DNA of 11,056 bases, taken from positions 1 to 11,056 of IMG/VR virus record IMGVR_UViG_2663763028_000004; one strand, given 5' to 3'. A program made the translations under genes and the position numbers. Below, piece by piece: positions 1 through 11,056 of this stretch (position 1 is its first letter; each line of letters opens with the position of its first letter). Under the pieces are notes generated by a model. The model ran no database searches. It was not told the origin of the DNA and saw only the letters and a program-made list of their open reading frames with translations. This DNA comes from a virus (lineage: Duplodnaviria; Heunggongvirae; Uroviricota; Caudoviricetes).

Positions 1-472
1 TAGTAAACATCCGTCGAGGACTGATGAACGGTCGCCAAATCAGCAGCATGGAGCCTTTGCTGTTTCCCTTCTTCTCCAGCCCCGTCGATGGTTCGATAAA
101 ATTAATCCGTCCATCAGTGATAATGCGAACTTCGTCGACACTCTCCAGAGCCTTGCTGAACCATCCGACTGACATATCCTCTGGCACAAGCATCACTACC
201 GTCTGTCGCTGTTGTATGCACTGCTCAGCGGCTTTTTCCACCCACGGCCTGATATTGCTGTACGGTGGGTTATTCCAGATTGCCCCGTGGCTTATCCACT
301 CAGAATTTAGCGCGTCGTCGGCCTCAGTTAGCCAGTGAGCACACAGAGCATTTTTGTCGCTCGCTGCCGAATCCAGCCAGAATCCAAACTCAATATCCAG
401 TGCATCAAAAAGCCAAAGCGGCGTTTGCCAGCAGTCCTTGTCGTGTGCTGGCGTATTTGATTTGATAGTCAT
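1..472 (-). CDS. Phage-type DNA N6-adenine methyltransferase (Dam family); C-terminal end lies beyond the window start
   Basis: Not in the ORF track (no stop in window). My own reverse-strand translation from ATG (complement of 470-472) gives MTIKSNTPAHDKDCWQTPLWLFDALDIEFGFWLDS...WNNPPYSNIRPW..., with the NPPY catalytic tetrapeptide of N6-adenine MTases. Start overlaps the ninB stop (ATGA). Confidence 0.75.
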   Translation of the reverse strand, partial: MTIKSNTPAHDKDCWQTPLWLFDALDIEFGFWLDSAASDKNALCAHWLTEADDALNSEWISHGAIWNNPPYSNIRPWVEKAAEQCIQQRQTVVMLVPEDMSVGWFSKALESVDEVRIITDGRINFIEPSTGLEKKGNSKGSMLLIWRPFISPRRMFT

Positions 473-909
473 GCTGCCCGATCTCCCCATCGCGCTTTCC
501 ATTCGAGAGCCAGTCGAGCTTCGTCTGACCACTTAACGCCACGCTCTGTACCGAATGCCTGTATAAGCTCTAATAGCTCCGCAAATTCGCTTACACGCAT
601 CCTGCTGGTTGACTGGCCTATTACCACAAAGCCATTCCCGGCAAGGTTAGGAACAACATCCTGCTGCTTTAATGCTGCGGTAAACACACACTTCCAGCTT
701 TCTGCATCCAGCCAGCGACCATGCCATTCAACCTGACGAGAGACGTCACCAAGGCAAGCCCAAAGCTTTCGATTCTGGTCTAAGCTGCGGTTGCGTTCCT
801 GAATGGTTACTACGATTGGTTTGGTTGGGTCTGGAAGAATTTGCTGTACTGCGTGAATAGCGTTTTGCTGATGTGCTGGAGATCGAATTTCAAAGGTTAG
901 TTTTTTCAT
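469..909 (-). CDS. ninB: NinB (Orf-family recombination mediator)
   Basis: Track ORF 469..927; translation from the internal Met (MKKLTFEIRSPAHQQNAIHAVQQILPDPTKP...) matches lambda NinB as I recall it. Start trimmed to 909 because a GGGAGAGAGGGAAG Shine-Dalgarno sits just upstream of that ATG. Confidence 0.88.
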   Translation of the reverse strand: MKKLTFEIRSPAHQQNAIHAVQQILPDPTKPIVVTIQERNRSLDQNRKLWACLGDVSRQVEWHGRWLDAESWKCVFTAALKQQDVVPNLAGNGFVVIGQSTSRMRVSEFAELLELIQAFGTERGVKWSDEARLALEWKARWGDRAA

Positions 910-924
910 GACTTCCCTCTCTCC

Positions 925-957
925 CAAATAAAAAGGCCTGCGATTATCAGCAGGCCT
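925..957 (-). terminator. Intrinsic terminator between helicase gene and ninB (tR2-like position)
   Basis: 8-bp perfect stem AGGCCTGC/GCAGGCCT (934-941 / 950-957) with 8-nt loop; on the minus strand it is followed by TTTTTATTT (complement of 925-933). Confidence 0.6.
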
Positions 958-982
958 GTTATTAACTCAGTGATGTAGATGG

Positions 983-2359
983 TCATACGTCAGCCCCTTG
1001 TGCATATCGTCTGCCACGCGCAGCAGGTGCATTTGATGCTGTGCAAATCTGTCTGGCTTCATCCTGGTCACACGCAACAAAGTGTCCGTTGCAGAACCGC
1101 TGGTAAACCGTACCAAGCGAGCCAAAACGGTTTTTCGTCACGATGATTTCAGCAAATGGCGCGGCGCTACTGTTCTCGTCATATACCGCTTCCCGATAGA
1201 GCATGATGATTGAGTCTGCGTCCTGCTCAATGCTTCCTGAATCACGCAAATCTGCGTTTGTCGGGCGTTTATTTGGTCGCTTCTCAACATCGCGCGAAAG
1301 CTGACTCAGGGAGATAACAGACGTTTTCAGGTCTTTCGCCATCGCCTTCAGGCTTCCGGAGATGTGAGCAATTGCAAGGTCGTTGCGGTCTGCTTTCGGC
1401 TTCTCAATCAGGCCAAGATAATCCGCCATGATGAGTGACAGGTTTGGATTTTCCTGTTTGTGCCGTTCTGCGATTGAGCGTATTTCTTCGACCGATAACC
1501 GCGATGCATCGACTACCCATACATCCAAATCTGCAAGCTGACTCATGCCGTTAGCAACACGCGCCCAGCCTTCGTCATCCATCGATGCAGGATTTCGCAG
1601 CACGCTAACCGACATCCTCCCGGCGTTGGCAATGCTCCGCTCTGCAATCTGCAATGCGCTCATTTCCATTGAGAAAATCAATACTCCGCGCCGGACGTCA
1701 GAACCAGGAATAACGCGGCTTGCAACACCTTCGGCAATCTTCAGCGCCAGTTCGGTTTTCCCCATACCAGGACGAGCGGCGATAATCACCAGGTCTTCCG
1801 CGTTCATCCCTCCGGTGATAGCGTCAAGTTCTTCGATTCCGGTCTTCAGGGTATCGGACTCTTCTCCGTTCCTCAGACGCCTGTCAAGCGTGTCAGTGTA
1901 GTCAGTGATGATTTCACCTAACCGTACAGGTTTAACCTCGTCACGGGGCTTTCTGATGGCTGAGAGACGCTTTACAAGCTCATCCATCGCCTGACTCGAT
2001 GCGTCGATGGTTCCGCTCTGAATTGGTTCACGCATTTCGTCCATGATTTCCAGCACCAGACGGCGGTGATAGTTATCCGCGACCATTCCGGCATATCCCT
2101 TCAGGTTTGCGGCACTCGGGCAGTTTTTGCTGGTCATCAGGATTGACGTGAAATGCTCCTCTCCGCACGCCTCGGCAACCATCAGCGCATCGATTAGGTT
2201 TCTGTTTCTCGCCTGCTTGCGGATAACCTCGAAGGCTTTCCGGTAGAGTGGAATTGAAAACGCTTCCGGATCCAGCGTTGCCAGAACGTCGCTGGCGGTT
2301 GGTGTTAATCCACCAATCAGCAGGCCACCGATAACGCTCGCTTCGATATCCTGTCTCAT
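983..2359 (-). CDS. Replicative DNA helicase, DnaB family (phage P22 gene 12-type), replacing lambda P
   Basis: 458-aa track ORF; Walker A ARPGMGKT, Walker B-like LIMADYLGL, DnaB-like N-terminal domain. AGGGGGA RBS upstream; start overlaps the stop of the upstream O-like gene (ATGA). Confidence 0.9.
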
Positions 2360-3186
2360 GCAATCCCCCTGTCTGCAAACTTCCCTTCCCGTACTCCCGT
2401 TAACGAATCTTCCCTCAGCAGGTAATCAAAATCGGCCGTCCAGCCCGTGTCGTTGTCTCCGAAGTAAAACGGCTTGGCCTGATGCACAAACGCCCTGACA
2501 TACGCTCTGAAACCGTCCACGTTTGGCGTTTTCAGTTGCGGGATGATTTTCTTCAGGCGGCGTTTGCGTTTCTCGTTGACCGCAACAGCATGTGGAAGTC
2601 TGTCACCGACTTCGGTGTTGTAGGCGTTCAGGAAGGATTCGTAGTCGATTCGTTCTGCCTTGCGACGTTCAGGTTTAACCTGCCCATCGCCGCCCCCGTT
2701 AGGGGGTAAGGGGGTATTTGTATTTATTGTCTTTTGTATATTGTCTTTTGTGTTTGACTGATTCGGTAAATTGCTTTTTACCGATTTGGTGAAGGTTTGT
2801 TTTACCGAATTGGTAAATGTTTTACCGAATCCGTTAACTTTCGTTTTCCACTCGGAAATGTTTGTATTCATACCAACTTGACGCCCCACCTGAATGAGAA
2901 CTCCCATTCTGATAAGCTCGTTTTTGGCGGTAGAGCATTTGGTTGGTGCCATGCCAGTGAGTTCAGCGAACTGTTCGTTTCCGATCCAATCTATTTTTTT
3001 GTTGTAACCGTATGTCTTGCGCCACACAGCCATAACAATCAGTAACTGATGTAGAGTAAGTCCAGAAAGCATGGCGGCTTCTAACAGTGTGTTTGCAGTC
3101 CGAGTGTAGCCATCTTCGAGTTCTGCCACGCGATGCTCCACGACCTCCAGTTGAGGCCTGTAATCAGCTAACTTAACGACGCCCAT
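2356..3186 (-). CDS. O: Replication initiator, lambda O family (replisome organiser)
   Basis: 276-aa track ORF; N-terminal domain ([32 protein letters not shown]) resembles lambda O as I recall it. Low-complexity central linker ([15 protein letters not shown]) is encoded by the iteron array. Confidence 0.85.
2715..2838. repeat. Probable replication origin inside the O-like gene: iterons plus AT-rich tract
   Basis: Three direct copies of GTTTTACCGA(A/T)T starting near 2774, 2799 and 2819, one inverted copy (ATTCGGTAAA, 2761-2770), and an adjacent T-rich tract with tandem ATTGTCTTTTGT (2726-2750). Relative to O transcription the order is iterons then AT-rich tract, as in ori-lambda. Confidence 0.7.
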
Positions 3187-3334
3187 GTTTCACTCCTGCT
3201 TTGGCTAGTCTGTAAACACCAACAAGGCGCTCTGCGAACGCCCTGTTATTTGCTGCGGCTACCACTAATCCCTCAGGTGAATCAGGGTGTCGAATCTCTT
3301 CTTTTTCCTGGTATTTCTTACGACGTTTTGTCAT
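3173..3334 (-). CDS. Hypothetical small basic protein (53 aa) between cII and O
   Basis: Not in track (<60 aa). My translation: [59 protein letters not shown] Shine-Dalgarno 5 nt upstream; 3' end overlaps the O start. Confidence 0.4.
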   Translation of the reverse strand: MTKRRKKYQEKEEIRHPDSPEGLVVAAANNRAFAERLVGVYRLAKAGVKHGRR

Positions 3335-3344
3335 AATTACTCCT

Positions 3345-3421
3345 GTGGATTGATCCAGTAATTCCCTCAGAATTGCATATCAATTTGCTTAAAATCCTCG
3401 GTGGCGGCCGGGGATTTTTTC
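3345..3421 (+). ncRNA. oop-like antisense RNA overlapping the 3' end of cII (coordinates estimated)
   Basis: Extended -10 promoter TG-T-CATAAT (3329-3337) on the plus strand; plus-strand terminator hairpin CCTCGG/CCGGGG (3396-3413) followed by TTTTTT, inside and antisense to the cII 3' end. Same arrangement as pO/oop in lambda. Confidence 0.4.
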
Positions 3422-3663
3422 TTTGTGATTTCATCAAGCGCATACTTAAAAGCCCTGCTAATCGGACTGATGTCTGATGCCATTCCGAAAGCACACAAGA
3501 CCGAAGCAATAAATCTCCAGTCCGTTCTGCTTATCTTCGATTCATGACAGCCAATCATCTTTGCCAGACCGCGCTGTGTAAGCGTTGACAGGTTGATGAG
3601 TAAATCTGTTTCTGCGCGATCAACGTCGCGCTGTGATAGTTTGCTGTAACTTGTTTGTTCCAT
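3367..3663 (-). CDS. cII: CII-family transcriptional activator
   Basis: 98-aa track ORF in the canonical position downstream of cro and nutR; helix-turn-helix-like segment (GLAKMIGCHESKISR). Its start codon abuts a TTGC-N6-TTGT element, as in lambda. Confidence 0.8.
   Translation of the reverse strand: MEQTSYSKLSQRDVDRAETDLLINLSTLTQRGLAKMIGCHESKISRTDWRFIASVLCAFGMASDISPISRAFKYALDEITKKKSPAATEDFKQIDMQF
3394..3421 (+). terminator. Intrinsic terminator of the antisense RNA (tO-like), with bidirectional character
   Basis: 6-bp stem with one G-U pair, 6-nt loop, then a T6 run (3415-3420); A-run on the 5' side. Confidence 0.55.
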
Positions 3664-3673
3664 TTCTTACTAT
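3641..3673 (+). promoter_or_regulatory. pRE-like CII-activated promoter
   Basis: TTGC-tgtaac-TTGT-ttgttc-CAT (3641-3663) has the same spacing as lambda pRE (TTGC-N6-TTGC-N6-CAT, where CAT is the reverse of the cII ATG); candidate -10 TACTAT at 3668-3673 points toward cro/cI on the plus strand. Confidence 0.55.
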
Positions 3674-3697
3674 TTCCATGGGTAAATAATCACTAAT

Positions 3698-3715
3698 ACT
3701 CATCTTTCGATGAGT
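3698..3715 (-). terminator. tR1-position hairpin (7-bp stem, GAAA loop); terminator function uncertain
   Basis: ACTCATC-GAAA-GATGAGT on the minus strand between nutR and the cII RBS; no strong U-tract follows, so Rho-dependent or merely structural. Confidence 0.3.
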
Positions 3716-3727
3716 GCTTAATTAGTT

Positions 3728-3762
3728 ACCGCGTTGTCGGCGGTGCAGATTGATAAAGAGCG
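3728..3762 (-). promoter_or_regulatory. nutR (boxA + boxB)
   Basis: Minus-strand boxA CGCTCTTTA (complement of 3754-3762) directly after the cro stop; boxB hairpin ACCGC-CGACAAC-GCGGT (complement of 3728-3744) with a GACAA-containing loop, as in P22-type boxB. Confidence 0.65.
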
Positions 3763-3769
3763 GTGTTAC

Positions 3770-3997
3770 TTATGCAGCCAGAAGGTTCTTTTTGCTTATT
3801 TCAAGCATTTCGCTTGCTTGATATTTGCCACCAGAAATCTCTTCGATTTTTGATGCGTATTTAGTTTTCCCAAAAAACTCAGTCTTAGGGAGGAAGCCGT
3901 TTTTGAGCCACTTATAGACAGCCCTTTCGCTAACTCCACAAGCCTTCGCAACTTCAGGGATGCCGACACCTTTAATCGGCTCATCAAGATTTTGCAT
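3770..3997 (-). CDS. cro: Cro-like repressor (HTH)
   Basis: 75-aa track ORF transcribed divergently from cI across the operator region; HTH-like segment GIPEVAKACGVSERAVYKWL; AAGGA RBS 7 nt upstream. Confidence 0.8.
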   Translation of the reverse strand: MQNLDEPIKGVGIPEVAKACGVSERAVYKWLKNGFLPKTEFFGKTKYASKIEEISGGKYQASEMLEISKKNLLAA

Positions 3998-4075
3998 AGG
4001 AATATCCTTTTTCGTACTTTCAGTACGTATTATGGTTGAACTGAAAGTTTTTGCAAGTGCTTTAGTATCGTACTC
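3998..4075. promoter_or_regulatory. OR operator region with divergent pR and pRM
   Basis: pR candidate on the minus strand: -35 TTGCAA (4051-4056), -10 CATAAT (complement of 4029-4034). pRM candidate -10 TAGTAT (4063-4068) ends 8 nt before the cI ATG. Dyad elements: CGTAC-N5-GTACG (4013-4027); 9-mer ACTTTCAGT (4016-4024) with inverted copy ACTGAAAGT (4040-4048) flanking the pR -10; CGTAC again at 4069-4073. Confidence 0.65.
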
Positions 4076-4783
4076 ATGGTTCAGAATGAAAAAGTGCGCA
4101 AAGAATTCGCCCAGCGGCTAGCGCAAGCCTGTAAAGAAGCTGGTCTTGATGAACATGGTAGGGGGATGGCCATAGCCCGTGCCCTTTCTCTTTCGTCCAA
4201 AGGCGTTAGCAAATGGTTTAATGCTGAGTCTTTACCGCGTCAGGAAAAAATGAATGCGCTTGCGAAATTTCTAAACGTTGATGTTGTTTGGCTTCAGCAC
4301 GGCACTTCGTTAAATGGAGCGAATGATGAAGATACTCTTTCATTTGTTGGCAAATTAAAAAAAGGGTTAGTGCGCGTGGTTGGTGAGGCAATTCTTGGTG
4401 TTGATGGTGCCATCGAGATGACCGAAGAGCGCGATGGGTGGCTCAAAATTTATAGCGATGATCCAGATGCCTTTGGTCTTCGTGTGAAAGGAGACAGCAT
4501 GTGGCCTAGAATAAAATCAGGAGAATATGTACTCATTGAGCCTAACACCAAAGTATTCCCGGGTGATGAGGTGTTTGTCAGAACTGTTGAAGGACACAAC
4601 ATGATCAAAGTTCTTGGCTATGACAGAGACGGAGAATACCAATTTACAAGCATCAACCAGGACCACAGGCCAATAACGTTGCCTTATCATCAAGTAGCAA
4701 AGGTGGAGTATGTGGCTGGTATTCTGAAGCAATCTCGCCATCTGGATGACATCGAGGCAAGGGAGTGGCTGAAAAGTTCGTGA
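4076..4783 (+). CDS. cI: CI repressor (N-terminal HTH, C-terminal LexA-like S24 autopeptidase domain)
   Basis: 235-aa track ORF; C-terminal GDSMWP motif and a Lys about 40 residues later (S24 Ser-Lys dyad pattern); no Shine-Dalgarno before the ATG. Confidence 0.9.
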   Translation: MVQNEKVRKEFAQRLAQACKEAGLDEHGRGMAIARALSLSSKGVSKWFNAESLPRQEKMNALAKFLNVDVVWLQHGTSLNGANDEDTLSFVGKLKKGLVRVVGEAILGVDGAIEMTEERDGWLKIYSDDPDAFGLRVKGDSMWPRIKSGEYVLIEPNTKVFPGDEVFVRTVEGHNMIKVLGYDRDGEYQFTSINQDHRPITLPYHQVAKVEYVAGILKQSRHLDDIEAREWLKSS

Positions 4784-4843
4784 CTTCATCGTCACATAGC
4801 TGGTAACCAGTGGCCTGAAGAGACGTTTGGGTAAAGAGGATAG

Positions 4844-5097
4844 ATGGAGTTTAATGGCCATGAGTATCAAGCGGTCAAAAAGAAGTTCATCTATTCATTG
4901 AAAGCATAAGGCCATCTGAGTATATCCGTAATGATCTGGATATTGTCTATAACATCAATGACCGGACGATAGATATCGGTGAGCAGCGTCCTGTATGGCA
5001 GGGTGAGGCAGGTGAAAAAACGTCCTGCCATCAACAAGAATCAAGTGCATCCGCTCTCTGGACAGATGGAAAATTTATTGGATGCAAAAAGATATGA
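4844..5097 (+). pseudogene. Frameshift-split reading frame (about 84 codons if joined) downstream of cI
   Basis: ATG at 4844 with AAGAGGA RBS opens a 21-codon ORF (MEFNGHEYQAVKKKFIYSLKA). The -1 frame is open for 78 codons (4864-5097) with no ATG/GTG/TTG in frame. The two overlap at an A5 run (4877-4881) in the context C-AAA-AAG. Confidence 0.3.
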
Positions 5098-5207
5098 AAT
5101 AACACCTGTATAGCACGGAGCTTTCTCTGACCGATGCACTTGAAGTTGTTAGGGCTGACCCAGCCTGCTGTTTCTTTAGGTAAGAGAAAAGAGATTTAGG
5201 AGATGAA

Positions 5208-5235
5208 AGGTCGCAGAGGTGCGGCCTTTTTTATT
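5208..5235 (+). terminator. Intrinsic terminator downstream of the cI transcription unit
   Basis: 8-bp stem AGGTCGCA/TGCGGCCT (one G-U pair) with GAGG loop, followed by T-rich tract (5228-5235). Confidence 0.6.
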
Positions 5236-5335
5236 GAGAGTGGATCTTGAACGGAAATTCTCAAGACTTGAGTCTTACATGCAAATCAATTCCTGGATAA
5301 ACTCGATCTGAGTCAATAACTTAGAGAGAGAGCAA

Positions 5336-5857
5336 ATGGCAAAGTCAAACGTTAGCGTGCAGGCATTCAAGGACTTCCTTGAAGAGCTTATGTCGCTGAA
5401 CATAATGAAGGAGGCCACCGCTCGAAATTTAAAAAACTCATCCGCTCGCCTCTTAACGGTAGTCCAAGAAGAGGAAATGGGTGATGTTACTCAGCTTGAT
5501 GTGAATGAGCTTGCCGAGCGATACATCAACGCAACTGAGCCGAAGCCTAGCGACAGCAGCATTACTGCATATAAAAGCCGCATGGAAAGTGCAATCAAAA
5601 AGTTTGTAGCTTTCCAGTCTGGTGAAGAAATCCCATACACTCCGATTGACAAAGAATCCAGTGAGGAAAAAGATTTGACTGGCGAACCAACAAAAGTCGA
5701 AGGCAAGGCTAATGCACTTCATACCTATGATCTTCCAGTAGTTCTTCGACCTGAATCAGGGGTTACAGTAACGATTAAAGGCATTCCTAACGATATCACA
5801 AACGAAGAAGCCGAACGCATCTCTTCAATTCTGAAGGTTTACGTTCGGCCTCAATAA
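5336..5857 (+). CDS. Hypothetical acidic protein (173 aa), moron in the cI-pL interval; family not recognised
   Basis: Track ORF with purine-rich RBS (AGAGAGAGAGCAA-ATG). Same strand as cI, but separated from it by a terminator and followed by one. No hydrophobic segment and no motif I can assign. Confidence 0.7.
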   Translation: MAKSNVSVQAFKDFLEELMSLNIMKEATARNLKNSSARLLTVVQEEEMGDVTQLDVNELAERYINATEPKPSDSSITAYKSRMESAIKKFVAFQSGEEIPYTPIDKESSEEKDLTGEPTKVEGKANALHTYDLPVVLRPESGVTVTIKGIPNDITNEEAERISSILKVYVRPQ

Positions 5858-6030
5858 TGCAAAAGCATTCAGCACAATGTCCAACTCCCCAGTCCGACAT
5901 TGATGCTGTTTAACCAGAGCCTCCAAAAGGAGCCCTTGTTAAGGTACACAATATTTGCGATGTAACCTTAGCGCGTCTGGTACATTTTTTCAAGCGGTTG
6001 TAGGGCTGCCGCCAATATGAGAAAACACAG

Positions 6031-6153
6031 ATGTCTACATACAATTTGAATGACCAATTCGATCGAGAAGTTCATGTGAATGCCTATGAACGGATAAGGT
6101 ATGGAAATCTTGAACATGTGTGTGAGCATTATCGCTCAAGGCCACACCGCTAA
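6031..6153 (+). CDS. Hypothetical 40-aa ORF ending 8 nt before a terminator
   Basis: My translation: MSTYNLNDQFDREVHVNAYERIRYGNLEHVCEHYRSRPHR. Weak Shine-Dalgarno (GAGAAAA); supported mainly by position. Confidence 0.25.
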   Translation: MSTYNLNDQFDREVHVNAYERIRYGNLEHVCEHYRSRPHR

Positions 6154-6160
6154 TCATCAA

Positions 6161-6186
6161 CCCGGCCTCAGCGCCGGGTTTTCTTT
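6161..6186 (+). terminator. Intrinsic terminator closing the moron unit upstream of pL
   Basis: Perfect 6-bp stem CCCGGC/GCCGGG with 6-nt loop, followed by TTTTCTTT. Confidence 0.6.
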
Positions 6187-6352
6187 GCCTCACGATCGCC
6201 CCCCATATTTAATAGCCGAAAATGTGGTAAACCGCGAACCAACTCACCAGCAATACCCCCTTCAACTACAGACCAATCTGCAGCATTTACAAAAATAAAT
6301 TTCCTTATATATCAAAATCATATCTCGAAGCATTAATAAACCACAAAATTTT

Positions 6353-6400
6353 CGTACCAATAGTTCTTGATAATATCGAACTATTGGTTCATTATTGTCA
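6353..6400 (+). promoter_or_regulatory. pL/OL candidate region
   Basis: Perfect 11-bp-arm inverted repeat ACCAATAGTTC-N11-GAACTATTGGT (6356-6388); candidate -35 TTGATA (6367-6372) and -10 CATTAT (6390-6395) with 17-bp spacing; CGTAC motif (6353-6357) shared with OR; sits about 40 nt upstream of nutL. Confidence 0.4.
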
Positions 6401-6441
6401 CGTCAGCAGGAAGCTGGAAGCCAAACGGAACAGATTGGCAG

Positions 6442-6475
6442 GCTCTTTAACTTCGATGGGGCGCTGACAAAGCGC
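6442..6475 (+). promoter_or_regulatory. nutL (boxA + boxB)
   Basis: boxA-like GCTCTTTAA (6442-6450) and boxB GCGCTGACAAAGCGC (6461-6475), which matches the P22 boxB sequence as I recall it; lies in the N leader. Confidence 0.7.
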
Positions 6476-6594
6476 AAACAGATACCAAACGAGATGGGTT
6501 TGTCGGTGATGTGAATTGCAGCTGCAACGACAGCAACCAGAAGATCAGCACCTGGCGCATCACCACCAAAGCCATTTCACATGAGGAAAACATC

Positions 6595-6930
6595 ATGACG
6601 GTAATCGTGTACGGGAAATCAACATTTGCAGGAAATGCCAAAACTCGCCGTCATGAGCGGCGCAGAAAGATGGCTATCGAGCGTGATGCCATCTGCAACA
6701 TCATTGATTCTATCTTCGGCACAGACAGTGAGGAACCTGTTCAGGAGGCCCCAAGAAAGCGTTTAAGCCTTTCTGAAAAAGCAATATCACTCGGAAGCCT
6801 TCGCTGCAAGAAGGCAGAAGAAGTCGAGCGTAAACAGAACCGTATTTACTACCGCAAGCCACGCAGTGAAATGGGTGTGACTTGTGTTGGTCGCCAGAAA
6901 ATGAAATTAGGCAGCAAACCACTTATTTGA
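6595..6930 (+). CDS. N: Antitermination protein N (P22 gene 24-like)
   Basis: Start chosen at the internal Met of track ORF 6511..6930 (GAGGAAAA RBS). N-terminus MTVIVYGKSTFAGNAKTRRHERRRKMAIERD contains the arginine-rich boxB-binding motif and is near-identical to the P22 N N-terminus as I recall it. Confidence 0.88.
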   Translation: MTVIVYGKSTFAGNAKTRRHERRRKMAIERDAICNIIDSIFGTDSEEPVQEAPRKRLSLSEKAISLGSLRCKKAEEVERKQNRIYYRKPRSEMGVTCVGRQKMKLGSKPLI

Positions 6931-6938
6931 GGTGATAT

Positions 6939-7409
6939 ATGACAATATCATGGAGCGTACCTTTTCCTGAATCAGAAACTGAACATGATGGAATGCCTGT
7001 TTTCTGGAGATTCCAGGCGACAGTTGAAGAAGATGGAATCAAAATATTCGCACTTCAATATATAGCTTTTCATCAGACAGAGCATTATGCATGGTTGGTT
7101 CCTGCGCATTGGATTGTTAATTTTAAACCAGCACCAAATCAGTGGTTACAGGAATGGAAACAAAAGAGAAATAGATATGCAATTAAGAAAGTAGCAAAAA
7201 ATGCAGAAAGATCTTTTGCATTCCCAACGAAGAAACTTGCCATTGAAAGTTTATTGCGCCGGAAGAAATACCATTTAATGAGAATCAAACAAGATTTGGC
7301 TGTTGTATCAACTCTTGTTGATGGGATGAAGAATATTGATACATCAACACCAGATATTGAATATAACTTTGGACACAACCAAGAAACAGAAAATTGGGTA
7401 TTTTATTAG
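6939..7409 (+). CDS. Hypothetical protein (156 aa), AT-rich, directly downstream of N
   Basis: Track ORF with GAGGTGA RBS, 8 nt after the N stop; visibly lower GC than flanking genes (roughly 35-40 percent by eye); no motif recognised. Confidence 0.7.
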   Translation: MTISWSVPFPESETEHDGMPVFWRFQATVEEDGIKIFALQYIAFHQTEHYAWLVPAHWIVNFKPAPNQWLQEWKQKRNRYAIKKVAKNAERSFAFPTKKLAIESLLRRKKYHLMRIKQDLAVVSTLVDGMKNIDTSTPDIEYNFGHNQETENWVFY

Positions 7410-7423
7410 TACAAATAAGCACT

Positions 7424-7451
7424 GTGTATTCATTCCAACGAGTGAATACAC
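7424..7451 (+). other. Perfect 9-bp-stem hairpin (GTGTATTCA / TGAATACAC, 10-nt loop) without U-tract
   Basis: Seen directly, 15 nt after the orf156 stop; function unknown. Confidence 0.5.
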
Positions 7452-7513
7452 GGAGCAATGTCGCTCGTAACTAAACAGGAGCCGACTTGTTCTGATTATT
7501 GGAAATCTTCTTT

Positions 7514-7540
7514 GCCCTCCAGTGCGTGAGGGCCTTTTTA
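7514..7540 (+). terminator. Intrinsic terminator (tL-like), first of a tandem pair
   Basis: Stem GCCCTC/GAGGGC with 8-nt loop, followed by CTTTTTA. Confidence 0.65.
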
Positions 7541-7553
7541 TATGCATACCAAT

Positions 7554-7576
7554 AACGCTTCACTCGAGGCGTTTTT
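7554..7576 (+). terminator. Intrinsic terminator, second of the tandem pair
   Basis: Stem CGCTTC/GAGGCG (one G-U pair) with ACTC loop, followed by TTTTT. Confidence 0.5.
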
Positions 7577-7602
7577 CGTTATGTATAAATAAGGAGCACA
7601 CC

Positions 7603-7743
7603 ATGCAATATGCCATTGCAGGGTGGCCTGTTGCTGGCTGCCCTTCCGAATCTTTACTTGAACGAATCACCCGTAAATTACGTGACGGATGGAAGCGACT
7701 CATCGACGTACTTAATCAGCCAGGAGTTCCCAAAAATGGATAA
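7603..7743 (+). CDS. cIII: CIII (FtsH inhibitor stabilising CII)
   Basis: 46 aa from the internal Met of track ORF 7522..7743, AAGGAG RBS at 7591-7596. MQYAIAGWPVAGCPSESLLERITRKLRDGWKRLIDVLNQPGVPKNG is near-identical to lambda CIII residues 1-46 as I recall them. Confidence 0.85.
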   Translation: MQYAIAGWPVAGCPSESLLERITRKLRDGWKRLIDVLNQPGVPKNG

Positions 7744-7849
7744 AACACTTATGGCTATCCAGACTAAATTCACTATCGCCACTTTTATTGGCGATGAAAA
7801 GATGTTTCGTGAGGCCGTCGAAGCCTACAGAAAATGGAGGTCAAAATGA
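7736..7849 (+). CDS. kil: Kil (host cell-division inhibitor)
   Basis: 37 aa from the internal Met of track ORF 7610..7849: MDKTLMAIQTKFTIATFIGDEKMFREAVEAYRKWRSK matches the lambda Kil N-terminal region as I recall it; overlaps the cIII 3' end as in lambda. Confidence 0.7.
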   Translation: MDKTLMAIQTKFTIATFIGDEKMFREAVEAYRKWRSK

Positions 7850-8034
7850 TCCCGGTAGAACTGGCGAAAACTCCAGAGTTAAGTCGATTAAAAAGAGAGT
7901 ATCACATTGCTGAGGCTCGTTACTGGCGTAAAGCGGGAGATAAATCAAAGAAACAACTTTGCTTATGGCTGGCACAAAGAGAGCGCATGAATGAGCGCGA
8001 ATTTCTTTCCTCCCCATCCGAATTACCATTCTGA
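7846..8034 (+). CDS. Hypothetical protein (62 aa)
   Basis: GGAGG RBS 5 nt upstream of the ATG at 7846; ATGA overlap with the kil stop; C-terminus ...SPSELPF. Confidence 0.5.
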   Translation: MIPVELAKTPELSRLKREYHIAEARYWRKAGDKSKKQLCLWLAQRERMNEREFLSSPSELPF

Positions 8035-8042
8035 GGTGAATT

Positions 8043-8723
8043 ATGGGAACTGCGATATTAATACTCGGTGAGTCTGGCACCGGAAAATCAACCAGCATGA
8101 GAAATATCAATCCAGAGGAAGCAATACTTATAAAACCAATAGGCAAGCCGCTACCATTTAAATCAAAAGACTGGCTTGCATGGGATGCCAGAGCAAAAAA
8201 AGGAACCGTAGTTACCACTGACAAATGGGGTGTAATAGTTGCCGTAATTAAGCGTGCTCACGAATACGGGAAAAGAATCGTTATTGTTGATGACTTCCAG
8301 TATGTGATGAGCAATGAGTTTATGCGCCGCTCAGAAGAAAAATCGTTTGATAAATTTACTGAGATAGGCCGCCACGCATGGGAGGTCATTAAGGCTGCAC
8401 AGGATGCGCCTGATGACCTGAGAGTCTATTTTCTTGCGCACACCGAAGAAACCCCTATGGGGCGCGTGAAAATGAAGACTATCGGCAAAATGCTGGACGA
8501 GAAAATCACTGTCGAAGGCATGTTTACTATAGTTCTTCGCACTCTTACCCGCGATGACCAGTTCTTTTTCACCACGAAAAACAACGGTGCAGACACTGTT
8601 AAATCCCCAATGGGAATGTTTGATTCCAATGAGATTGATAACGATCTCTCTTTCGTCGATGCCACTGTTTGTGATTACTACGGCATCAATAATGTTCATC
8701 AAATTAAGGAAAACGCCGCATGA
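8043..8723 (+). CDS. P-loop ATPase, Sak4-like (RecA-fold recombination ATPase) candidate
   Basis: 226-aa track ORF; N-terminal Walker A GESGTGKST, Walker B-like RIVIVDD; located where lambdoid phages carry their recombination module; GAGG RBS. Confidence 0.6.
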   Translation: MGTAILILGESGTGKSTSMRNINPEEAILIKPIGKPLPFKSKDWLAWDARAKKGTVVTTDKWGVIVAVIKRAHEYGKRIVIVDDFQYVMSNEFMRRSEEKSFDKFTEIGRHAWEVIKAAQDAPDDLRVYFLAHTEETPMGRVKMKTIGKMLDEKITVEGMFTIVLRTLTRDDQFFFTTKNNGADTVKSPMGMFDSNEIDNDLSFVDATVCDYYGINNVHQIKENAA

Positions 8724-9307
8724 GCAACGTAATTTTTACTTATAACGAAGAAGCAGCACTGACCGCAGGGCAAGGTGGTTTTATTAACGAAACTGGCGCT
8801 TACATAATTACCATTACTGAAGCAGAACTCAAGCAATCAGAAAAAGGAGCCAAATTTATTGAGTTTTCTGGAGAATCCGACGACGGACGTAAAATCCAGT
8901 ATCTTAGCGTCTGTGTTCAGAAAAATGACGGCACGGAAAACAAATTTGGCGCAAATGTCGTTCACGCCATGATGGGGTGTGCCGGGATTGGACAATTAAC
9001 GCAACATATGGTTTCCGCCAGTAAATTTGTTGCACCTGAATTTCATGGAAAGAAAATCGGGTTAGTGCTCCAGAAAGTATTAACCACAAACAAAAAGACT
9101 GGCGCAGACAGCTACCAGATGGAAATACGCATCCCGTTTATTGCACAAACAGGTCAAACCCTTAAAGAAAAGGCAGAAGGCAAGCAACCAGAAACTATCG
9201 CCAACATGGTTGCCAGCCTCAAAGATAAAGACAATCGCTCTAAAAACGTAAGCCATAATCATGCAGATGATTATGGTTACAGCCAGAACGATTACCCTCC
9301 TTTCTGA
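8720..9307 (+). CDS. Hypothetical protein (195 aa) with SSB-like acidic/aromatic C-terminal tail; putative ssDNA-binding partner of the ATPase
   Basis: ATGA overlap with the upstream ATPase gene; C-terminus DDYGYSQNDYPPF resembles the SSB C-terminal DDDIPF tip; the body does not look like a canonical OB-fold SSB to me. Confidence 0.55.
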   Translation: MSNVIFTYNEEAALTAGQGGFINETGAYIITITEAELKQSEKGAKFIEFSGESDDGRKIQYLSVCVQKNDGTENKFGANVVHAMMGCAGIGQLTQHMVSASKFVAPEFHGKKIGLVLQKVLTTNKKTGADSYQMEIRIPFIAQTGQTLKEKAEGKQPETIANMVASLKDKDNRSKNVSHNHADDYGYSQNDYPPF

Positions 9308-9330
9308 TTACTGAAAATAAGGCTCCCATT

Positions 9331-9627
9331 ATGCCAGCGCCTCTGTATGGTGCGGATGACCCGCGCAACTGCTCCGGTAGCTCCAAGGCGGAGGTGCTGG
9401 GAAATATCAAAAACAATTTCGACGCGTTTCTTGCTCTGACACCAGAAACAAAAGCAGAACGGATGTACCGACGCGATATACAACTCGCGCTAAAACAGGA
9501 GAAGGACCGAACAAACGAAACAGCAATGAGACCGTTGCGAAAAGCGACAATAGACAAATTCCCTGAATATATCGACCCGCGCCTGCGTAATTACCGCTCA
9601 CGCTATGGCGCTATCAGTAATGACTGA
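9331..9627 (+). CDS. Hypothetical protein (98 aa)
   Basis: Track ORF in operon orientation with a weak AAGG Shine-Dalgarno. Confidence 0.5.
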
Positions 9628-9637
9628 GGAATTTACC

Positions 9638-9805
9638 ATGAGAGGACTTGCATACAATCCCGGCATTCTTCCGGCAGAAATGATTATTCGCCAACGCGTA
9701 AAGCCAATGCCATCGAGAGAGGAATTGCTTAAGAGAAAGAGTTTCGGTTCTGTTAATGACAACAAATATCTGAATGCGATGTGGCGTAAAGGAGGCAGCC
9801 AGTGA
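9638..9805 (+). CDS. Hypothetical protein (55 aa)
   Basis: Internal Met of track ORF 9605..9805 with GAGGA RBS 7 nt upstream; its stop overlaps the next start (GTGA). Confidence 0.4.
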
Positions 9806-10446
9806 ATAACCGTTTTTACATGATGTGCTTGCGTGAAACTGTGGGTAATAACGCCTCATTCCATTGCCATAACGGCAATGGTTACAGTTCTGATATCGAT
9901 CGCGCTCATGTTTACACGCTGGAAGAAGCCCAAAAATCCTGGAATTGTGGTCGAGATATCGATCAGCCTGTTTGCGCTGATAGCGTGGATGCAATGGCTG
10001 TGTGGCACGTTGATTGCCAGTACATCCCTACAGAAAGCCTGATTGAGCCAGATTGTACTGCGTATGTGGCCTACAAAAAAGGTAGCTGGAACGGCAACGA
10101 TGTTTACTGGCTTCAACACGGTGGATTGCCAACAGATGACTTCAGTAAAGCGACCATCTTTAGCGTCGCCAACAAAAACGAACCAGGAATAGTTTGGTTG
10201 CCATTTTCCATTGCTGATGCAGCAAAGCACCGGACGTTCAATATCAATAACTTTAACCGCAGAACAATGGTTCAGGGCGCAGGTTTGGTCATGCCTGACT
10301 GGTTGAAAGAGCAGAACAGAAGAAAGAAGTCGCGAAGCGGGAAGGTGCGTTGGAATTGTCCGCATTGCGGAAAAATAACCTGGCAGTACAGCCCATATGA
10401 TTTTGAAGGCTGTCGTGATTACAACTGTGAAGGATGGCGAGAATGA
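9802..10446 (+). CDS. Hypothetical Cys-rich protein (214 aa) with C-terminal CPHCGK...C...C zinc-ribbon-like motif
   Basis: GTG start preceded by strong AAAGGAGG RBS; translationally coupled on both sides; multiple Cys/His clusters. Confidence 0.7.
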
Positions 10447-10958
10447 CAATTGACTATCAGGCACTGCGAGATGCGGCAGTTGCAGTAGAAACAGAACCTA
10501 TGCATCAAAATTTTGTGGCGTTTCGTATGGCGTTCACGCCATCGGTGGCACTGGCACTACTGGATGAAATTAAGCGGCTGGAAGACACAAATATTGATGC
10601 TATGTGCCGTATTGCAGAGCTTGAGACTAATCTCGCGGCGCTGGTGGCAGAGAACGCCGGACTGAAACACGCAATGGCCGTAACTCTTGAGCATGTGTCG
10701 GTCACGGATGCAGGGCAGGCTGGTGTTGCTGCAATGATTATCAACGATGCCCTGCACCACAGCGAAACCCCAGCCACCGATGCTTTCCTGGCTGAAGTAC
10801 GGGCGCAGGGGGTAGAGATGCTGGCAAAAAATCATCAGAGTATCGTCAATGCACTTAAGGGAGATTCTTTATTTTCTGATGGTGAATACCGACATGCAGC
10901 TATTGTTTCCGCAGCTGTATATTTCGCTGCAGAGCTTCGCAAAGGAGGCAACCAGTGA
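10443..10958 (+). CDS. Ea22-like family protein
   Basis: N-terminus [15 protein letters not shown]...FTPSVALALLDEIKRLED follows the pattern of lambda-region Ead/Ea22-like proteins and of the adjacent paralog. Start placed at 10443 (GAAGGA RBS, ATGA overlap) rather than the track's 10434. Confidence 0.65.
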   Translation: MTIDYQALRDAAVAVETEPMHQNFVAFRMAFTPSVALALLDEIKRLEDTNIDAMCRIAELETNLAALVAENAGLKHAMAVTLEHVSVTDAGQAGVAAMIINDALHHSETPATDAFLAEVRAQGVEMLAKNHQSIVNALKGDSLFSDGEYRHAAIVSAAVYFAAELRKGGNQ

Positions 10959-11056
10959 GCGAAATTAATTACCAGGCACTGCGTGAGGCGGCAGAACGTG
11001 CAACTCCAGCAATGGAACGCCTGTTAATGTTGCCAGTTGATGATGATTTGTTAAGT
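10955..11056 (+). CDS. Second Ea22-like paralog, 5' fragment (continues beyond window end)
   Basis: GTG start with AAGGAGG RBS 7 nt upstream, GTGA overlap; VSEINYQALREAAERATPAMERLL... parallels the N-terminus of the preceding gene. Confidence 0.55.
   Translation, partial: MSEINYQALREAAERATPAMERLLMLPVDDDLLS

Follow-up and report, generated by a model that had tools for sequence, protein, structure and literature searches.

What is the reading frame that breaks at a run of five adenines behind the cI repressor gene in the virus record IMGVR_UViG_2663763028_000004? The window analysed here is the whole stretch of DNA, positions 1 to 11,056 of that record, and comprises the immunity and early region of a lambdoid, Shiga toxin (Stx) phage-like prophage, with its map reversed relative to the usual lambda drawing. 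An earlier reading of the sequence had described the split frame and offered three explanations: a pseudogene, a sequencing indel or a -1 frameshift site. The feature is real and its explanation is ordinary: it is a pseudogene that belongs to a known family and has been disabled several times over, larger and more damaged than first described. We conclude with high confidence that positions 4844–5183 (plus strand) are the remains of a 113-codon gene of the DUF3024 family carrying three disabling lesions, and that no programmed frameshift is involved.

The split reading frame

A recheck of the letters and a three-frame translation confirmed every coordinate that the sequence-only reading had given for 4844–5097. 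A Shine-Dalgarno sequence, AAGAGG (4834–4839), stands 5' of an ATG (4844–4846) that opens a 21-codon open reading frame (ORF), MEFNGHEYQAVKKKFIYSLKA, ending at the TAA at 4907–4909. The -1 frame is free of stops from 4864 (after TGA 4861–4863) to the TGA at 5095–5097, a run of 78 codons with no ATG, GTG or TTG start, and the A5 run (4877–4881) lies inside the motif C-AAA-AAG (4876–4882). The chance of such an open run had been put at 2–3% per frame, which is right for uniform codons ((61/64)^78 = 2.4%); with the local base composition it falls to 0.5% per start position. When the 552-nucleotide (nt) spacer at 4784–5335 was shuffled, 523 of 5000 shuffles left one of the three forward frames open for 78 codons or more. 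Because about 10% of shuffles give an equally long run, the open frame by itself is weak evidence, and it is homology, not ORF length, that makes the feature real. About 45 of the 78 open codons (4882–5014) are in the true ancestral DUF3024 frame; the last 27 or so (5018–5097) are out of frame and open by luck, the chance of which is 16–27%.

Three lesions in a DUF3024 gene

The lesions were placed by DNA alignments to intact alleles together with three-frame translation and reconstruction (Table 1). At the site of the first, intact alleles read GTC-A6-G or GTC-A5-GG. At the second, the window has GGTG-A6-CGTCC where the intact allele of Enterobacter asburiae has GGTG-A7-CGTCC, coding E-K-N-V-L-P; intact Escherichia coli alleles read GGTGAAACAAAC or GAAACAAAC there. 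These two independent 1-nt contractions in adenine runs shift the ancestral frame through all three frames in turn. The third lesion falls on Trp87, which is invariant in 17 of the 17 intact homologues aligned. The ancestral stop codon is the TAA at 5181–5183, so that the remnant reaches 5183 and does not end at 5097 as had been thought.

The family assignment depends on reading the three segments together. When stitched across the three frames, the protein matches DUF3024 (Pfam PF11225) over profile positions 4–111 (E = 2.5e-25, 89.3 bits), and only in this form is a whole-domain match above the gathering score of 24.9 bits obtained. The third-frame segment alone matches positions 58–111 (E = 2.8e-11). 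A continuous protein of about 84 residues had been proposed, to be obtained by restoring one A or by a single -1 slip. Its first 58 residues are correct, and residues 5–59 match profile positions 3–55 (28.7 bits), but the last 26 are out of frame, and this tail, KTSCHQQESSASALWTDGKFIGCKKI (KTSCHQQ...), matches nothing. A single uninterrupted ORF of about 112–113 codons is interrupted in the window copy by the two 1-nt deletions and the TAA, and the window copy is therefore a pseudogene of the DUF3024 family and not a functional member; the 113-residue protein cannot be made from it. Residues that are invariant among close intact homologues have been lost as well. The window allele differs at 7 of the 38 columns that are invariant in the 17 intact homologues, as against 0–2 for each intact sequence, a sign of relaxed constraint since inactivation.

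In some O157:H7 genomes PGAP calls a 53-residue 'hypothetical protein', WP_434087148.1, with a CTG start at 4936–5097 on the plus strand (L004:1307–1468). The ORF lies inside the pseudogene, part of it in the ancestral frame and part outside.

Intact relatives and the protein family

An intact 113-codon DUF3024 gene lies directly after the repressor in phage 933W (L0084), phi24B (vb_24B_13c), E. coli 95NR1 and Salmonella phage ST160. The comparison with related prophages that had been recommended thus finds orthologues with a continuous ORF and with A6 (or A5-GG) at the site of lesion 1; the absence of any homologous ORF, which would have spoken against a gene, is contradicted by intact DUF3024 genes in the same slot. 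All 17 intact homologues that were aligned (58–81% identical to the reconstruction) have a single frame, and the same is true of the 933W, ST160 and Enterobacter alleles. The intact protein matches PF11225 (2.1e-31), phrog_3467 (1.7e-67) and the PADLOC candidate PDC-S43 (5e-42), the last in a scan with the intact 95NR1/933W-type orthologue as query (positions 1–113 of 115).

For the ancestral protein, structure prediction gives a small soluble domain composed of a helix, a five-strand sheet and a helix (predicted local distance difference test, pLDDT, 83.8). Structure comparison yielded no informative relative, and a search of solved structures by sequence found no homologue, only insignificant matches to AvrPto (E = 0.07). 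A literature search found no papers on DUF3024 or 933W L0084, and PDC-S43 only in one strain inventory.

Two further DUF3024 sequences carry damage of their own. Compared with intact ST160, the gene of Salmonella phage SW-70 (L010:1501–1842) shows a +1 and a -1 indel separated by 46 nt, and a stop codon lies in between; the cause is either a separate decay of this gene or faulty assembly. A 101-residue protein from ENA (P0014) is an E. coli-type DUF3024 with an in-frame deletion of 12 residues (RIKYIRSLDRWK removed), and may be another damaged allele of the family.

Spread of the broken allele

In complete E. coli genomes, the broken allele was found in 233 records at a minimum of 99% identity. 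All 35 evenly sampled rows of these are 100% identical over 371 nt, and DUF3024 is annotated at the broken allele in none of them. A further 158 E. coli records carry an allele that is 80–90% identical, and an intact DUF3024 gene is annotated in those sampled. Of the records in the phage collection, 44 align to the reconstructed protein only in two pieces that lie in different frames, and 90 have an intact allele of 82–83% identity. The 44 include the Sanger-era records VT2-Sakai, Nil2 and Stx2 phage 1717.

This distribution bears directly on the sequencing indel that had been suggested, that is, an error of sequencing or assembly in a homopolymer, the real genome having A6. Such runs are indeed error-prone, and one single-member Logan cluster (P0021), in which all three A-runs are one base shorter, looks like just such an error. 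The A5 allele recurs, however, with both other lesions in the 233 E. coli records (35 of 35 sampled rows identical) and the 44 phage records, from many laboratories and platforms, and a one-base fix would leave the second frameshift and the stop codon in place. An artefact is extremely improbable and for practical purposes excluded.

The same data speak to whether the A-runs form a phase-variable (contingency) switch that turns the gene on and off by slipped-strand mispairing. Both frameshifts do lie in adenine runs, but runs of 5–7 A are short for high-frequency switching, and the 35 evenly sampled rows show no polymorphism of tract length. The ON state is also out of reach: it would need two simultaneous reversions in addition to removal of the TAA at 5100–5102, and A6 alone leaves lesions 2 and 3. 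The probability of such a switch is vanishingly small.

History of the window allele

No intact copy of the window allele type was found in phages, in complete E. coli genomes or in a set of 5.8 billion clustered proteins, where the closest intact protein is 81% identical. By the Nei-Gojobori method, the stitched window gene differs from intact alleles with a synonymous divergence (dS) of 0.6–1.0 and a ratio of nonsynonymous to synonymous divergence (dN/dS) of 0.08–0.12. Most of the divergence therefore accrued under purifying selection in the ancestral frame, and this is true of all three present-day frames; the window allele is a long-diverged variant that evolved mostly in this way before its death.

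Recombinant and variant forms occur. A metagenomic contig (L012; protein P0019, 12 member sequences) has an intact-type 5' end with A6 fused to a window-type body that carries lesions 2 and 3, giving an 84-codon ORF. In a Logan contig (L013; P0020, one sequence), a T inserted about 20 nt after lesion 1 restores an ORF of the same length. DUF3024 alleles thus recombine freely. The broken cassette is found mostly behind an Sp5-type repressor, in Stx phages of the Sp5/VT2-Sakai type, and behind a 933W-type cI here and in strain EC2001. Its presence behind two repressor types suggests that recombination has carried it from phage to phage as a passenger.

The window itself is a mosaic with a junction between 4076–4783 and 4807–5400: a cI identical to that of 933W is followed by a pseudogene, terminator and orf22 of the Sp5/VT2-Sakai type. 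Of the 5,426 complete E. coli genomes, EC2001 alone aligns over the full length of both parts at high identity (98.9%).

Possible recoding or co-option of the remnant

Could the split frame nevertheless be decoded by a programmed -1 frameshift of the dnaX kind, in which ribosomes slip at C-AAA-AAG, pass from the 13-codon head into the -1 frame and so make a functional protein of 84 residues? A_AAG is a known minimal -1 shift site in E. coli, which has a single tRNA-Lys, and it can compensate nearby frameshift mutations at a low level (PMC5009743). The tetramer is therefore shift-prone in this host; the head has a good Shine-Dalgarno sequence and an ATG, and two rare variants, P0019 and P0020, have an unbroken 84-residue ORF of this kind. 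The likeness to dnaX that had been noted holds for this tetramer but not for the full X_XXY_YYZ heptamer. In the zero frame the site reads C_AAA_AAG (4876–4882) with C as its first base, and re-pairing in the P site would be from AAA to CAA (rule: PMC5009743). Neither kind of stimulator is seen: the predicted fold of the 80 nt at 4883–4962 has an energy of -12.5 kcal/mol, the mean of shuffles being -12.0 (z = -0.19), and 4856–4875 contains no motif resembling GGAGG or AGGGAG. A single slip would give a product that leaves the DUF3024 frame at 5015–5020 and lacks half of the domain, and with it the invariant W76, Y79-W80-M81-R82, W87 and the FFG end. Finally, the two-frame arrangement is confined to one near-clonal allele and is not conserved across diverged homologues; the 17 aligned intact homologues and the 933W, ST160 and Enterobacter alleles all use one frame. 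The second deletion (5015–5020) and the TAA (5100–5102) in the ancestral frame leave the proposed frameshift site without support, and we consider programmed frameshifting very unlikely. Of the phrase 'decayed or recoded lysogen-expressed gene', 'decayed' is borne out by the three lesions, and 'recoded' falls with the lesions further downstream, which had been missed.

A weaker form of the idea is that low-level slippage of tRNA-Lys in the abundant cI transcript yields a little 84-residue protein with residual or altered (for example dominant-negative) activity, retained by selection, with P0019 and P0020 as its slip-free fixed forms. Such a protein would consist of the N-terminal half of DUF3024 (the helix and first two strands) fused to 26 new residues. 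We give this very little credence.

A further alternative is that the remnant has been co-opted, either as a 3' untranslated region, structured or regulatory, of the cI mRNA, or by giving rise to a new small protein (the 21-residue peptide or the 53-residue, CTG-initiated ORF at 4936–5097). Hundreds of genomes have kept it without deletion, and this behind two different repressor types, it is located between cI and a conserved terminator, and PGAP annotates WP_434087148.1 in some genomes. In a near-clonal phage lineage, however, retention is uninformative on selection. Rfam gives no family match in the remnant, the only one in the window being the cIII thermoregulator at 7590–7648; the fold of 5100–5245 is no better than that of shuffles (z = -0.77), and the small ORFs in the remnant match no family. 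Moreover, substitutions relative to intact alleles track the old DUF3024 codon phase and not a new frame. Co-option, too, is a poor candidate with a very low probability.

Several points do weigh against an ordinary dead gene. With its low dN/dS the sequence still looks coding, and composition alone would not reveal the gene as dead. The continuous 84-codon ORF in the rare variants P0019 and P0020 could hint at a use of the truncated product, and a trace of 84-residue trans-frame product is mechanistically possible at A_AAG (PMC5009743). Transcription and translation of the remnant in the window are themselves things that we infer.

Setting and expression

The genes and other features of the window are given in Table 1.

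Table 1. Coordinates of the DUF3024 remnant, its lesions and the surrounding features of the window.
Feature	Position	Strand	Basis
ninB	469–927	-	ORF list
DnaB-type replication gene	983–2359	-	ORF list
O	2356–3186	-	ORF list
cII	3367–3663	-	ORF list
cro	3770–3997	-	ORF list
cI repressor gene, 235 residues, upstream gene of the operon	4076–4783	+	ORF list
Shine-Dalgarno AAGAGG and ancestral ATG of the DUF3024 gene	4834–4846	+	
Split reading frame as first reported	4844–5097	+	
Segment A: DUF3024 codons 1–13 (MEFNGHEYQAVK-K), ATG frame	4844–4881	+	three-frame translation and reconstruction
Lesion 1: 1-nt loss in A-run	4877–4881	+	DNA alignments A1, A2, A4 and L018
Segment B: DUF3024 codons 14–58 (EVHLFIESIRPSEYIRNDLDIVYNINDRTIDIGEQRPVWQGEAGE), -1 frame relative to ATG	4882–5014	+	three-frame translation
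TAA closing the 21-codon ORF created by lesion 1	4907–4909	+	
Lesion 2: second 1-nt deletion, in A-run	5015–5020	+	alignments A1/A2 and L018:3170–3182
Segment C: DUF3024 codons 60–113 (NVLPSTRIKCIRSLDRWKIYWMQKDMK-stop-HLYSTELSLTDALEVVRADPACCFFR-stop), third frame	5021–5183	+	three-frame translation
Lesion 3: TAA in the ancestral frame instead of TGG of Trp87	5100–5102	+	
Terminator-like hairpin (core GGTCGCA-GAGG-TGCGGCC, 5209–5226), then T6	5205–5235	+	RNA fold
Conserved ORF, 173 codons, phrog_2602	5336–5857	+	
N-like gene	about 6595–6930	+	
cIII with Rfam thermoregulator	7590–7648	+	

The cI protein of the window is 100% identical to that of 933W. In the 933W and phi24B records the gene next after the repressor is annotated within the pM/pRM transcript. 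A terminator scan found no terminator-like hairpin between cI and the DUF3024 remnant. The hairpin and T6 that lie 3' of the remnant are conserved, as judged by alignment and RNA fold; the hairpin (5209–5232) was missed by the consensus terminator scan and recovered by RNA fold. It probably ends the cI-DUF3024 transcript. The cI message would thus still run through the remnant, as an untranslatable 3' part, to the hairpin and T-run at 5205–5235, and ribosomes starting at 4844 would make only the 21-residue peptide, which has no known use. The description of the gene as lysogen-expressed is supported by its intact orthologue in phi24B, vb_24B_13c, which is reported to be expressed in lysogens; this expression is linked to the lysogenic state and unchanged on induction (PMC4651098).

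The ancestral gene product is likely to have been an alpha/beta protein, small and soluble, that lysogens made. It was probably an accessory ('moron') factor of the prophage that worked through protein binding, possibly in phage exclusion. A role in superinfection exclusion or defence is our best guess, held with low confidence, because of the rex-like slot, the PADLOC PDC-S43 label and the neighbourhood of an ATPase and a methylase in Yersinia. That neighbourhood is found in a Yersinia enterocolitica prophage (L016:2517–6342), where DUF3024 follows a 137-residue ORF in the repressor position and is followed by a 596-residue AAA_15/AAA_21 ATPase and a DNA methylase. It is defence-island-like and lies inside the immunity region.

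The remaining observations concern other parts of the window. The conserved ORF at 5336–5857, between the terminator of the cI operon and the N region, corresponds to Sakai orf22 (WP_001130059.1, 173 residues, phrog_2602, function unknown), and has no match in Pfam or PADLOC. Upstream of it, at about 5245–5275, are the inverted repeats TCTTGA...TCAAGA and AAGAC..GTCTT. The base at about 5277 is private to the window, being A where 95NR1, VT2-Sakai and EC2001 have G, and the spacer from the terminator to orf22 is otherwise invariant. The ORF at 6511–6930 (plus strand) holds an N-type arginine-rich motif (GNAKTRRHERRRK); its listed GTG start is likely to be too far upstream, the true start probably being an ATG that gives MTVIVYGK.... 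The Rfam element Lambda_thermo (cIII thermoregulator) matches at full length with 88.5 bits, which places the cIII start at about 7603. A small RNA of the AsxR/AgvB class of Stx phages was considered and rejected, because such genes are located 3' of stx2B or downstream of PR' (PMC4104026).

Significance

The findings have no bearing on recoding biology. Their value is mainly for annotation: for Stx phages of the Sp5/VT2-Sakai type, public records either annotate nothing in this stretch or place spurious small 'hypothetical proteins' there, such as WP_434087148.1, and it is better labelled as a pseudogene of DUF3024 that has two frameshifts and one internal stop. They also provide a natural ON/OFF pair for probing the function of the PDC-S43 candidate, since 933W-type phages keep this first gene of the repressor operon intact and Sp5-type phages carry it dead.

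Comparison with known systems

With the A_AAA_AAG site of E. coli dnaX the window shares the A_AAG core read by tRNA-Lys and a downstream -1 frame. It differs in the first base of the heptamer (C), in having neither a downstream hairpin nor an upstream Shine-Dalgarno-like element, in an arrangement that is not conserved, and in a product that is truncated and half out of frame.

The closest counterparts are 933W L0084, phi24B vb_24B_13c and ST160 gp23 (SE1 orf24), all of them intact DUF3024 genes directly after a prophage repressor. Compared with these, the window copy is split over three frames, has an in-frame TAA, and is changed at 7 of 38 invariant residues. The intact orthologue also matches, end to end, the model of PADLOC PDC-S43, a single-gene candidate for phage defence. 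PDC entries are computational candidates, the literature search found no experimental defence test for PDC-S43, and the window copy is in any case dead.

The last comparison is with rexA-rexB of lambda. The DUF3024 gene has no relationship to Rex in sequence or fold, is one small soluble protein as against a two-component system, and has no known exclusion phenotype. What they share is position: each comes first after the repressor in the same orientation, with a terminator before the PL-N region. Just as rexA-rexB is co-transcribed with cI from PRM in lysogens, the phi24B orthologue of DUF3024 is reported to be lysogen-expressed.
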